NCBI GenBank assembly: GCA_027068725.1
Contig: JAMOMD010000467.1
Location: 1 to 20,447, forward strand
Direction of reading: 5' to 3'
Source of the DNA: Thermoproteales archaeon
GTDB lineage: Archaea; Thermoproteota; Thermoprotei; Thermoproteales; Thermocladiaceae
DNA length: 20,447 bases
Positions 6,477 through 11,655 of the stretch are shown here, piece by piece (positions within the stretch are counted from its first letter, which is position 1; every line of letters starts with the position of its first letter). The notes under the pieces were generated by a model. That model was given only the letters and a program-made list of their open reading frames with translations, did not search any database and was not told the origin of the DNA. The translations under genes were made by a program, and so were the position numbers.

Positions 6477-8978
6477 CTAGTCCACGTAACTCACCTTAAC
6501 TCTTCGGTCACCATCAATGCGCTCAATCTCGATCAGCTCAACTGGAACATTCTTTGAACGTGCCTCCTGCACTATCTGATCAATGAACTCACGACTCTGC
6601 GATGTTATGACTAGCTGACTGACCAGCCTCTCAGTTATTAGCCTAGTTATTAGACTAGCAAACGCCTTCCTAACCTCAACATCTACGTAAGGTATTGGCT
6701 CATCCATTATTAGGAAGCTCACGTTGTGACTAGCGACTGAGTACACAGACAACATGAATGCTAGAGCAAGAGTTAGTCTCTGACCATCGCTCATTCTTGA
6801 TATTGGGACTTTTCTGCCGCCTCTCCTTATGCCATATAGAACGTACTCACTTACTAGAACTCCAAGGCGCTCGCGTGTACTTATCTCTATGCTTGCTCCC
6901 GTGAGATCAGGATGAGGATATATCATTCTGAAGTACTGATCAACAAGTGATCGTGTGCGCTCGATCATTCTCTCTCTAAGATCCTTCTGTATTTTCCTCA
7001 GGACATTCCTAATCGTGTTAAGTTTCTTGTAGAGATCTTCAAGCTTGTAGACTCTGTTCCTGAGCTCCTCAACAGTCTCAACAGGAATCGAGCTGAGAAT
7101 CTGCTCAAGCCTAGAAGCCTCAACACTAAGCGCGTTTAGCCTCTCGCGAGTCTGCTCAAGTCTTCTAGAGACTTCAGAAATCTCTTCCTCTAGACGAGAA
7201 GCACGAGAGAGATCAAAGCCCTGAGCACGAAGCTTCTGTTCAAGCTCCTTTTCCTCACGTAAGAGCTCTCTATACCTCTTGATCTTCTTCAAAAGCGTTA
7301 GTGCTTCATCAACCTTGTCTAATCTACTTCTAACTTCATCAATTAGAAATCTAAGTACCTGAGCACGCTTCTCAAGAAACCTTCTATTCTTATCAATGTT
7401 CTCAAGCTTTGCAACAACTCTACTATAGTTCTCTCTCAACATTTTCAACTTTGTATAGAGTTCCTCATACTCACTAACAATAGGCTTGAGACTTTCCATC
7501 TTTGCTAACACTTGCTCAAGCTCAGTAATCCTGCGTCTAGCATTCTCTATCTCATCAAGAACCTTCCTATGCCTCTCCCTCAGCTCCTCAATTCTTCTCT
7601 TCGCCTCCTCCCTATCCTTATCACTAAGCTCTCTACCACACACAGGACAAGTGTCTAGCCGTCCTGAAGCAATTGCCTGTAGTATAGTTATGATAGCAGA
7701 GACAACACCTACATCACTCGTAGTCTTCTCCACGAGCTCTCTAAGACGCTCAAGCTCGCTTCTGATAGCCTCAGGCTGACCATACTTATTCTCCAGCTCC
7801 TGATACTCCCTAAACTGACTTTCCAGCTCTCTAAGTCTTCTCTCAATATTCCTTATCTCACTACTAAGTCGCTCAGCCTCTACCTTAAGCTCCTCATGAG
7901 CCTTAGCAAGATTCTCCTTCTCTTCATCAAATCTCGATAAAGCATCTTCAAGACGCTTCAAAATATCATAAATTTTCAGCGCAGCTTCTTCCAAGTTCTG
8001 AGAGGTTATAGAAAGCTTGGCAAGCTCCTCAGCTTCCTTAGAGAAAAGCAACTCCTCTAATTTAGAAACTAGAAAACTCCTAATAAGATCAAGCTCAATC
8101 TTTATTGAAGTTTCAGAAACGTCACTCTCCTTACCACTTATCTCCTCTTCAAGTTTCTCACGCTCACTCCTAATTTGAAGATACTTAATGTATACATTCT
8201 CAAGATCCCTCAAAGACTTAAGAATACTATTTCTCTCCTCAATAAGCTTAGCATACTTCTTCTGAAGCTCCTCTTCAAGTTTCTTCAATTCTTCTATCTC
8301 CCTCTTTATTCTATCAAGTGCTCTACGCGCTTCCTCAACAGACCCATACCTTGATATTATCTCAGGAAGCTCCTTATAGGCAGATAACTTACTCTTCTCT
8401 TGCTCAAGTATCTCTTCTACTTTTCTGATTGGTATCGACTTGTATATATTTTCAAGTATATCTATGCCAAATAGCTTATCAATAGTCAAGCTTCTTCTCG
8501 TTGATGTACCATAGACAAGTCCTTCGAGAACTCTATGAGTTACTAGAATAAACCTCGAGAAATCTTCCTCGTCTAGTCTAAGTATTTCAGTAATGATATC
8601 TGTCACATCTCTAACAGTAGAGGCAACCTTCTTGCCTCCAATAACTAGCTCGACCTGATGCTCTCTGGCAGAATCACCAACTCTCTTAAGTGCACGCATG
8701 ACACGAAGCTGCTCACCCGTGTCCTCTCTTACTAGTGTCAACGTTACACGTGCCTCGGACTCCTCCTCATTTATCAGATCTGCGAGCTTTGCTATTCTCT
8801 CCTTAATCTCAAGCTGCTTACCGTATAGTGCATACTCTATTGCTTGGACTATGCTTGATTTTCCAGCACCTACAGGTCCGTAGATTGCTACTATTGGCCT
8901 ATCGAAAGGTATGCTAACTTTTCCACGAAATCCTCGGAAATTGATAATTTCGAGACTCTGTAACCTGTACTTGGTCAT
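6477..8978 (-). CDS. SMC/Rad50-like coiled-coil ATPase; arcadin-4 candidate
   Basis: Motifs are Walker A GPVGAGKSS (aa 34-42), about 550 aa of heptad-rich coiled coil and a central CPVCGR hook-like motif (C444/C447 of 833). A divergent signature MSDGQR and Walker B FLIMDEP follow. It is the last gene of the crenactin operon, with an ATGA overlap to the upstream small ORF. Confidence 0.7.
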   Translation of the reverse strand: MTKYRLQSLEIINFRGFRGKVSIPFDRPIVAIYGPVGAGKSSIVQAIEYALYGKQLEIKERIAKLADLINEEESEARVTLTLVREDTGEQLRVMRALKRVGDSAREHQVELVIGGKKVASTVRDVTDIITEILRLDEEDFSRFILVTHRVLEGLVYGTSTRRSLTIDKLFGIDILENIYKSIPIRKVEEILEQEKSKLSAYKELPEIISRYGSVEEARRALDRIKREIEELKKLEEELQKKYAKLIEERNSILKSLRDLENVYIKYLQIRSEREKLEEEISGKESDVSETSIKIELDLIRSFLVSKLEELLFSKEAEELAKLSITSQNLEEAALKIYDILKRLEDALSRFDEEKENLAKAHEELKVEAERLSSEIRNIERRLRELESQFREYQELENKYGQPEAIRSELERLRELVEKTTSDVGVVSAIITILQAIASGRLDTCPVCGRELSDKDREEAKRRIEELRERHRKVLDEIENARRRITELEQVLAKMESLKPIVSEYEELYTKLKMLRENYSRVVAKLENIDKNRRFLEKRAQVLRFLIDEVRSRLDKVDEALTLLKKIKRYRELLREEKELEQKLRAQGFDLSRASRLEEEISEVSRRLEQTRERLNALSVEASRLEQILSSIPVETVEELRNRVYKLEDLYKKLNTIRNVLRKIQKDLRERMIERTRSLVDQYFRMIYPHPDLTGASIEISTRERLGVLVSEYVLYGIRRGGRKVPISRMSDGQRLTLALAFMLSVYSVASHNVSFLIMDEPIPYVDVEVRKAFASLITRLITERLVSQLVITSQSREFIDQIVQEARSKNVPVELIEIERIDGDRRVKVSYVD

Positions 8979-9154
8979 TCTTCCTTGATCTCTATGCCAA
9001 TCTCCTTAAGTAAACCATACACTAAGTCACGCACCTTCTTCTGACCACCCTGCTTATATGCCTGATATAGCTGTTCTGCAAGTCTGTAAGTATCCTCGTC
9101 AGGTATCTCTCTTCTAAGAAGCTCAAGAACAATCTTATCAATTTCAGTACTCAT
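8975..9154 (-). CDS. Small 59-aa protein not in the ORF track; arcadin-3 candidate by position
   Basis: Hand translation gives MSTEIDKIVLELLRREIPDEDTYRLAEQLYQAYKQGGQKKVRDLVYGLLKEIGIEIKEE. Its ATG (9152-9154) overlaps the upstream TGA (9151-9153). Its TGA (8975-8977) overlaps the downstream ATG (8976-8978). Confidence 0.6.
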   Translation of the reverse strand: MSTEIDKIVLELLRREIPDEDTYRLAEQLYQAYKQGGQKKVRDLVYGLLKEIGIEIKEE

Positions 9155-9930
9155 CTCTCGCTAGCCTTCTTAGCAAGTATTTGAACCCATGGATTATCAC
9201 GCAAGAAATCAGGCACACCCTCACTAGGCGTAGCTCCTGCTTCCTGTACCGCCTCCTCAACCATGACAGGCTTTGCCTGCGGTTTCTCAGCAGGACTTAC
9301 AGTAGCACCAGTCTGAATACTTGTCTTAAGTCTCTCTATCTCTAGCTTTAGTCTATCAACAACGTTCCACAGACTATTCAACTCCTCTTTCAGCTCCTTC
9401 CCAATTCCGGATGTCGTAACCTTTGACTCGAGCTGACGTACTCTATCCTCAAGTGCCGAGATTCTTGTCTCAAGTATACGAATTTCCTGTATAATTTTCG
9501 ATAGCTGTTCATTAACTATCTCAGCTATTACTGGTCTAAGCCTATCAATACTCTCTATATCTACGACCTTTCTAATTCTTATAGCAGGGCTCGGAAGAAC
9601 CTCCACAACTGTTCCTTTTTCAAAATCAATACCAAGCACACCTATAGAGAGTTTTTTCAATAGTTTCCCATCTAGAAGATGCACATATTCACTCTGTAGT
9701 GCTACATATACTTTATTGAAATTGTTTCTATCTTTTGCAAGTTCCATTAATGTTGAGTTAAGTCTATCAACATCTGGAAAATCTTCGAAAAGTACAAGCT
9801 TTATGAGTACAGTATTGTCTCCCTCTCTTGCAAGAATCTCGTCTTCTCTAACGTCCTCTATTACTATGCCTCTCTCTCGTGCCCAAGATCTGACTATGGA
9901 TAGTGCCTGTTCCTGAATTAGTGAAGACAC
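9151..9930 (-). CDS. Coiled-coil protein immediately downstream of crenactin; arcadin-2 candidate
   Basis: The 259-aa architecture has four parts. A globular N-terminal region spans aa 1 to about 125, and a coiled coil spans about 135 to 205. A Pro/Ala/Glu-rich linker follows, then a C-terminal amphipathic peptide, VPDFLRDNPWVQILAKKASER. It uses a GTG start. Position and architecture fit published arcadin-2. Confidence 0.6.
   Translation of the reverse strand: MSSLIQEQALSIVRSWARERGIVIEDVREDEILAREGDNTVLIKLVLFEDFPDVDRLNSTLMELAKDRNNFNKVYVALQSEYVHLLDGKLLKKLSIGVLGIDFEKGTVVEVLPSPAIRIRKVVDIESIDRLRPVIAEIVNEQLSKIIQEIRILETRISALEDRVRQLESKVTTSGIGKELKEELNSLWNVVDRLKLEIERLKTSIQTGATVSPAEKPQAKPVMVEEAVQEAGATPSEGVPDFLRDNPWVQILAKKASER

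Positions 9931-9979: not shown

Positions 9980-11655
<1,676 letters not shown>

Follow-up and report, generated by a model that had tools for sequence, protein, structure and literature searches.

A divergent arcadin-3 from a Thermocladiaceae genome, encoded with arcadin-4 and similar to the Rad50-binding tail of Mre11

A stretch of 20,447 nucleotides (nt) of contig JAMOMD010000467.1, from a Thermoproteales archaeon (assembly GCA_027068725.1; Thermoproteota, class Thermoprotei, family Thermocladiaceae) and called the window in this text, carries on its minus strand a gene array that includes crenactin, arcadin-2 and arcadin-4. Between the genes of arcadin-2 and arcadin-4 lies an open reading frame (ORF) of 59 amino acids (aa), which is a real gene and more than a chance ORF. 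Judged by its sequence, the product is a divergent arcadin-3, by homology and not by position alone. The gene is tied to that of arcadin-4, which encodes a Rad50-like ATPase, rather than to arcadin-2 or crenactin, and the protein is similar to the C-terminal tails of Mre11 proteins. The arcadin-3 family, of which the window protein is a divergent member, was already known, and its similarity to Mre11 tails is new here. Arcadin-3 is quite likely a free-standing Mre11 Rad50-binding domain, predicted to be an obligate small subunit of arcadin-4 that clamps its coiled coil at the base.

The original prediction, made from the letters of the DNA, described a minus-strand ORF that fills the gap between the ORFs of 259 aa (arcadin-2) and 833 aa (arcadin-4) with an ATGA overlap at both ends, and the coordinates and the translation match it exactly. 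In the minus-strand reading the upstream junction is gagagATGAgtact, in which the ATG of the 59-aa ORF (9154-9152) overlaps the TGA of the 259-aa ORF (9153-9151), and the downstream junction is gaagaATGAccaag, in which the 833-aa ORF starts with an ATG (8978-8976) that overlaps the TGA of the 59-aa ORF (8977-8975). The ORF listing has no ORF of at least 40 aa on the plus strand within 8975-9154. Frame conservation across relatives had been proposed as a check, and the reading frame is intact in every relative examined. The protein of the nearest relative is 90% identical to that of the window, with differences at 25.5 of 36.5 synonymous sites, which is near saturation, and at 7.5 of 137.5 non-synonymous sites (dN/dS ~0.03). 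In five more genomes of the same genus the synonymous sites are saturated and the 59-aa protein can still be aligned. The ORF is regarded as a gene because of this low dN/dS and because the frame is kept in relatives. It had also been described as unlisted, which is correct for an ORF track that starts at 60 aa but not for public records, since the identical protein is already called, without a name, in NCBI, JGI, ENA and Logan. The source is a metagenome-assembled genome (MAG), 83% complete and in 469 contigs, and a search for related loci with the single 59-aa protein leads to one MAG, of an uncultured Thermoproteaceae archaeon.

Against the NCBIfam model NF053562 (Rkd3) the 59-aa protein scores 35.9 bits (E 5.7e-9, profile positions 3-52 of 56), and public annotation leaves it unnamed because the curated equivalog cut-off of this model is 90 bits. 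The ORF is the single match of the Rkd3 profile in the genome of the window. Among 62 genomes of the order, 57 have one match per genome, 13 have one that passes the curated cut-off, and none of 14 control genomes has a match at the same threshold. An alignment of 40 arcadin-3 sequences, which also serves as a search profile (A1), is collinear end to end across at least six genera and includes the window protein over its whole length. In window numbering G37 is invariant and R14, L29, Y33, L49 and G53 are conserved in at least 90% of the sequences; the window protein carries all of these residues. When the single protein was the query of a word-seeded homologue search, three near-identical proteins and nothing further came up, and the search of a large protein collection with A1 found 31 proteins, all small (52-59 aa), nearly all labelled 'hypothetical protein' and with Caldivirga, Pyrobaculum and Thermoproteus as the named sources. 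The Pfam scan of the 59-aa protein gave only sub-threshold noise (DUF2267, RVT_N, RE_ScaI), and A1 found nothing below E 0.1 among PDB sequences. The NCBIfam cut-offs for Rkd3, and those for the Rkd2 and Rkd4 matches of the window, are tuned to Pyrobaculum, so that the arcadins of Caldivirga, Vulcanisaeta, Thermoproteus and the genus of the window remain 'hypothetical'.

The Pyrobaculum arcade cluster was reportedly described by Ettema et al. in 2011, and arcadin-3 is said to have received its name in that year. Like the arcadin-3 (Rkd3) of Pyrobaculum, the gene of the window occupies the slot directly upstream of arcadin-4, here between arcadin-2 and arcadin-4, and its product belongs to the same length class (48-62 aa) and is collinear with it at the six conserved residues listed above. 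The proteins are just 30-36% identical, and the junctions differ as well: the Pyrobaculum gene starts with GTG, 23-36 nt behind arcadin-2, and overlaps arcadin-4 by 23 nt, whereas the window gene has an ATGA overlap with both neighbours. Crenactin is encoded in the arcade cluster with four arcadins, and the published description states that 'Arcadin-3 is small' (Izoré et al., PMC5173319). The assignment to arcadin-3, which the original prediction had based on position, is upheld by the NF053562 match, by the full-length alignment with ORFs of the same slot and by the fit to the published size and cluster content.

The association with arcadin-4 is seen in the arrangement of the loci, which were inspected in 48 genomes of the order, with one case among the g4 genomes assigned by hand. 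In all 48 the arcadin-3 match is directly upstream of an arcadin-4 gene of ~800 codons, and in 44 the start of arcadin-4 overlaps the end of arcadin-3, the rest having gaps of 2-13 nt. Of 25 Pyrobaculum- or Thermoproteus-like genomes, 24 share an overlap of 23 nt; it is 4 nt in the window, its closest relative, the Caldivirga-like genomes and g9, and 8 nt in four genomes of the window's genus. On the upstream side arcadin-3 overlaps its neighbour by 1-8 nt in most of the window's genus, g2, g9 and the Vulcanisaeta-like genomes; elsewhere there is a gap, mostly of 23-37 nt in Pyrobaculum and Thermoproteus and of 58-170 nt in the Caldivirga-like genomes, whose upstream neighbour is unrelated to arcadin-2. 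Arcadin-3 and arcadin-4 do not share a contig with crenactin in the Caldivirga-like (g3) and g4 genomes, and in one complete genome (G004) crenactin is at 916781-918061 and the arcadin-3/arcadin-4 pair at 1957543-1959977 (L050, G004:C1:1954000-1961200), ~1 Mb apart. The Caldivirga-like pair follows a Trm112-like gene and an Lhr-type helicase gene, and the ATGA overlap with arcadin-4 is retained there. Because the junction with arcadin-4 is kept, the upstream junction is variable and crenactin can be unlinked, arcadin-3 belongs with arcadin-4. The original prediction had read the two overlaps as translational coupling to both neighbours; of the two, the junction with arcadin-4 is conserved and the overlap with arcadin-2 is lineage-specific. 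The further proposal of that prediction, that the product could serve the SMC-like ATPase as an accessory, is supported, and made sharper, by the conserved overlap.

The same picture extends through the class, in which 120 genomes were scanned for crenactin and arcadin-4-like genes. Crenactin is present in 103 of them and arcadin-4-like genes in 102, the two co-occurring and both missing from two families (f4 and f5). Of 20 genomes sampled from the class's other families, 19 have a small ORF that abuts the arcadin-4-like gene and is matched by the arcadin-3 profile. The family thus reaches the whole crenactin-bearing class, well below the NCBIfam cut-off, and since it can be detected at this level, many 'hypothetical proteins' can be named. 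Within the arcade cluster an actin module can be told apart from a Rad50-like one, and arcadin-3 travels with arcadin-4 of the latter, not with crenactin.

Archaeal mre11 genes lie directly upstream of rad50, and the C-terminal helix-loop-helix of Mre11 is its Rad50-binding domain, which is known from the Mre11-Rad50 structures of Pyrococcus, Methanocaldococcus and Thermotoga. The Pfam family PF22226 (Mre11_C) carries the name of this domain. Arcadin-4 is nested inside the Rad50 radiation, and a Rad50 origin has been proposed for it (Yoshinaga et al., PMC9389158). Taken together, the Rad50 origin of arcadin-4, the order of the mre11 and rad50 genes and the Rad50-binding function of the Mre11 tail led to the hypothesis that arcadin-3 may be such a tail, freed from the rest of Mre11, and this hypothesis was recorded ahead of the phylum-wide search described below. 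In the literature searched, which did not include the 2011 paper, no link between arcadins and Mre11 was found, and one review names both.

The profile A1 was compared with 401 genomes of the phylum, translated in six frames, and nearly all of its matches outside the class are of two kinds, the C-termini of Mre11 and the C-termini of cysteinyl-tRNA synthetase (CysRS). The Mre11 matches come from 12 genomes of three families and lie at the C-terminal ends, 3-13 residues before the stop, of proteins of 370-420 aa, whose sequences open with the Mre11 phosphoesterase motif and which have Metallophos domains in Pfam. The best of them has an E-value of 2.1e-7 per genome (31.6 bits, profile positions 4-49), and in each case examined rad50 begins within ~25 nt of the arcadin-3-like tail. 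In pairwise BLASTP comparisons an arcadin-3 of g9 is 45% identical to one Mre11 tail over 47 residues (E 1e-7), and the window protein is 31% identical to an Mre11 tail over 51 residues, ungapped (E 6e-7). Arcadin-3 and these tails have the core AELAVxxYxAY(R)xGG in common, with an acidic amphipathic helix after it. In the reverse direction, a hidden Markov model (HMM) of 13 Mre11 tails, searched against the 26,348 six-frame ORFs of the genome of the window, finds arcadin-3 alone (E 0.0017; the next match has E 0.58).

Profile-to-profile comparison with hhalign used an unbiased set, the C-terminal 70-85 residues of Mre11 proteins of the same class, picked regardless of similarity. Arcadin-3 aligns with the Thermocladiaceae Mre11 tails alone with a P-value of 3.9e-4, and with P 1.6e-5 to 6e-5 and a probability of 65-79% when Thermoproteaceae and other tails are added; the alignment covers 43-46 columns, which is almost all of arcadin-3. 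With a profile of full-length Mre11, the top local alignment of arcadin-3 is to the C-terminal tail. As decoys, arcadin-4, with 833 mostly helical columns, gives P 0.012-0.13 and arcadin-2 gives P 0.16-0.39, and reversed profiles give P ~0.007 over 1-4 columns. The Mre11 tails of three families outside the class (f25, f30 and f41; L154-L165, L172) are closer to arcadin-3 than to the Mre11 tails of the class itself (L080-L123): in hhalign the two sets of tails align with P 0.03-0.09, and arcadin-3 aligns with the out-of-class tails with P ~1e-9, the latter value being inflated by selection. The Rad50-binding tail of Mre11 evolves fast.

The AlphaFold2 (AF2) model of arcadin-3, built from an alignment of 32 sequences, has a pLDDT (predicted local distance difference test) of 93 and a pTM (predicted template modelling score) of 0.73, and consists of a helix at residues 4-16, a short loop, a long helix at residues 20-51 that bears the conserved AY(K/R)xGG motif and an unstructured acidic tail with the motif G(I/V)x(I/V). 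In the AF2 model of the Mre11 of this genome, the nuclease and capping body is followed by a disordered linker (347-361) and by helices at 361-374, 381-396 and 400-411. The hhalign alignment pairs these C-terminal helices with the two helices of arcadin-3, and it sets Mre11 G398, at an inter-helix turn, against the conserved G36/G37 of arcadin-3.

Arcadin-3 is thus like the Mre11 Rad50-binding domain in being a helix-loop-helix of ~50 residues whose gene is immediately upstream of that of a Rad50-type ATPase, in the matching helix pattern of the two AF2 models and in its significant sequence similarity to the Mre11 tails of three other Thermoproteota families. Unlike Mre11, it is free-standing, with no nuclease domain, capping domain or linker, and unlike the out-of-class Mre11 tails it has the additional G(I/V)x(I/V) acidic tail. 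The original prediction had also named a kleisin-like accessory. Arcadin-3 shares with kleisins, such as ScpA, its small size, a gene beside that of an SMC-superfamily ATPase and probably production in a fixed ratio with it, but it lacks the winged-helix domain and is far too short to bridge two heads. No kleisin match was found in Pfam or NCBIfam, and no kleisin fold was matched by the AF2 model in the Foldseek search of the PDB. Moreover, unlike the partners of kleisins, arcadin-4 belongs to the Rad50 branch (PMC9389158), whose partner is Mre11. The kleisin comparison is therefore not supported, the protein being a two-helix hairpin without a winged helix whose detectable relative is the Rad50-binding tail of Mre11.

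Several results weigh against descent from Mre11, and most of them speak for a different explanation, in which arcadin-3 is a lineage-specific small helical protein whose likeness to Mre11 is a convergence of short amphipathic helices, and which may still act together with arcadin-4. The domain is short and helical. In HMM-to-sequence searches the arcadin-3 profile misses the Mre11 of this same genome, and the reverse search fails too. The AF2 model of arcadin-3 has no Foldseek neighbour in the PDB below E 5. The Pfam family PF22226 matches 2 of the 40 arcadin-3 members, with a best E-value of 0.019, which does not reach the threshold, and its scan of 120 genomes gives noise-level matches only; that scan misses the Mre11 tails of the class as well, and the arcadin-3-like Mre11 tails outside the class are likewise missed by Mre11_C, which is too narrow to decide the question because it does not detect the class's own Mre11 tails. 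The Rad50 proteins encoded beside the arcadin-3-like tails are no closer to arcadin-4 (101-110 bits) than other Rad50 proteins are (117-148 bits).

To these points is added the second kind of match of A1, the C-terminal anticodon-binding domain of CysRS, an unrelated protein that scores just moderately weaker than Mre11 and is found in 7-8 genomes with 16-22 bits at profile positions 23-56 (L166-L171 and L173, in the Pfam CysS_C region, with further loci at L175-L204). In hhalign, arcadin-3 against unselected CysRS tails of the same order gives P 3e-4, so P-values near 1e-4 can reflect a common local motif and hhalign alone is insufficient; selection by similarity inflates the values of ~1e-9 obtained with the Mre11 and CysRS sets from outside the class. 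The common feature of arcadin-3 and CysRS is a helix followed by LxxxG(I/V)xVxD, a turn that recurs in other weak matches in the genome of the window. The similarity to CysRS covers 19-26 columns, made up of the turn G(I/V)xVxD and the final helix, compared with 43-46 columns for Mre11. The best Mre11 match is ~1000-fold more significant than the best CysRS match and spans nearly the whole of arcadin-3; arcadin-3 is the reciprocal best match within its genome; the matched segment of Mre11 abuts rad50, as arcadin-3 abuts the gene of a Rad50 derivative; and the Mre11 tail had been predicted as the target ahead of the search. Convergence is for these reasons an unlikely explanation. When the length, significance and reciprocity of the match, the prior prediction and the gene context are weighed together, it is likely that arcadin-3 shares descent with the Rad50-binding domain of Mre11.

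It is improbable that arcadin-3 is mainly an adaptor for arcadin-2 or crenactin, which would link the actin filament to other parts instead of being a subunit of arcadin-4. The overlap of its start with the arcadin-2 stop in the window's genus, g2, g9 and the Vulcanisaeta-like genomes would fit such a function, as would the grouping of arcadin-1 together with arcadin-3 and arcadin-4 as auxiliary to cell shape in the part of a preprint that summarises the immunostaining of 2011 (bioRxiv 10.1101/2022.04.06.487207). The junction with arcadin-2 is not conserved, however, being a gap in Pyrobaculum and Thermoproteus, and in the Caldivirga-like genomes arcadin-3 stays with arcadin-4 next to a Trm112-like upstream neighbour while crenactin is elsewhere. 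Published crenactin binding data cover only arcadin-1 and arcadin-2 (PMC5173319). Lastly, a small nucleic-acid-binding protein, of the ribbon-helix-helix type or like the anticodon-binding domain of CysRS, is suggested by matches of Pfam RHH_6 (best E 3.9e-4) and by the local CysRS similarity, but is very improbable, since RHH_6 matches just 3 of the 40 members, the AF2 model lacks the N-terminal strand needed for the ribbon-helix-helix fold, the tail is acidic and, in the unbiased test, only the last 19-26 columns resemble CysRS.

The preferred reading remains that of a freed Rad50-binding domain, which is the most likely one given the Rad50 derivation of arcadin-4 and the match to Mre11 tails. 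The arcadin-3/arcadin-4 pair would descend from an mre11-rad50 gene pair, in which a copy of Rad50 would have become arcadin-4 and, of Mre11, just the C-terminal Rad50-binding helix-loop-helix would have been retained as the mini-protein arcadin-3. The protein may be translated in step with arcadin-4 from the overlapping cistrons and would grip arcadin-4 beside the ATPase head, at the base of the coiled coil, in the way in which the tail of Mre11 grips Rad50; by analogy with that complex we infer both the physical binding of arcadin-3 to arcadin-4 and its site. Arcadin-3 would contribute no nuclease and would serve the arcadin-4 dimer in a structural or regulatory way: the engagement of the heads may be stabilised or gated by it, or it may provide a docking surface for crenactin or arcadin-2. 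The G(I/V)x(I/V) acidic tail, which is not present in Mre11 tails, is a candidate contact for another partner. The wider account, in which arcadin-3 and arcadin-4 form a nuclease-less offshoot of Mre11-Rad50 recruited beside crenactin, with arcadin-3 as the freed tail that still clamps the Rad50 derivative, is also probable, if held a little less firmly than the preferred reading. If it is true, the pair may tether DNA, or organise it, with respect to the actin filament instead of being purely cytoskeletal. The link to the Mre11 Rad50-binding domain gives arcadin-3, an orphan protein, a hypothesis that can be tested at the bench, and it supports the proposed Rad50 origin of arcadin-4 by a second, independent gene.

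Table 1. Genes of the crenactin array in the window, in order of coordinate.
Feature	Coordinates	Strand	Basis
arcadin-4 (Rkd4), 833 aa, Rad50-like ATPase with zinc-hook region	6477..8978	-	NF053563 732 bits (cut-off 860)
arcadin-3 (Rkd3), 59 aa	8975..9154	-	ORF with ATG start, NF053562 match, family alignment, dN/dS, AF2
arcadin-2 (Rkd2), 259 aa, divergent	9151..9930	-	NF053561 E 3.8e-10, profile 8-168 of 196, below cut-off
crenactin, 436 aa	9980..11290	-	NF053560 741 bits (above cut-off 630); Pfam Actin
120-aa ORF, arcadin-1 slot, first gene of array	11293..11655	-	position only; identity unconfirmed

The genes of the array are collected in Table 1. The slot of arcadin-2, between crenactin and arcadin-3, is the same as in Pyrobaculum. 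The 120-aa ORF, which starts the array 2 nt upstream of crenactin, has no NCBIfam match and does not match the solved arcadin-1 chain. Its sole matches among PDB sequences are weak ones to the actin-binding ADF-H domains of twinfilin (E ~0.06), and this similarity, next to an actin gene, is probably due to chance.

In other genomes of the survey, two peculiarities of arcadin-3 loci were considered and set aside. An apparent arcadin-2::arcadin-3 fusion in G021 (L072, G021:C1:75800-81500) falls in an assembly with frameshifts throughout its cluster, and it looks artefactual because the same indel errors break the neighbouring genes. The crenactin and arcadin-4 genes are split over several frames in the MAGs G021, G022 and G027. 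In-frame TAG codons inside two matches of the g4 genomes are natural stop codons, past which the alignment ran.

In the literature consulted, arcadin-3 is characterised by its small size only, and the function of arcadin-4 has been termed 'completely unknown' (PMC5173319, PMC11946384). The 833-aa protein of the window also matches Rad50 families of NCBIfam, at 1e-44 and weaker, and its Pfam domains are SMC_N, AAA_23 and Rad50_zn_hook, the last at residues 436-459. The zinc-hook match is weak (E 0.0011) and lies around a CPVC motif in the region of window positions 7638-7649; the match and the motif, as read from the sequence, are consistent with a Rad50-type apex in arcadin-4.

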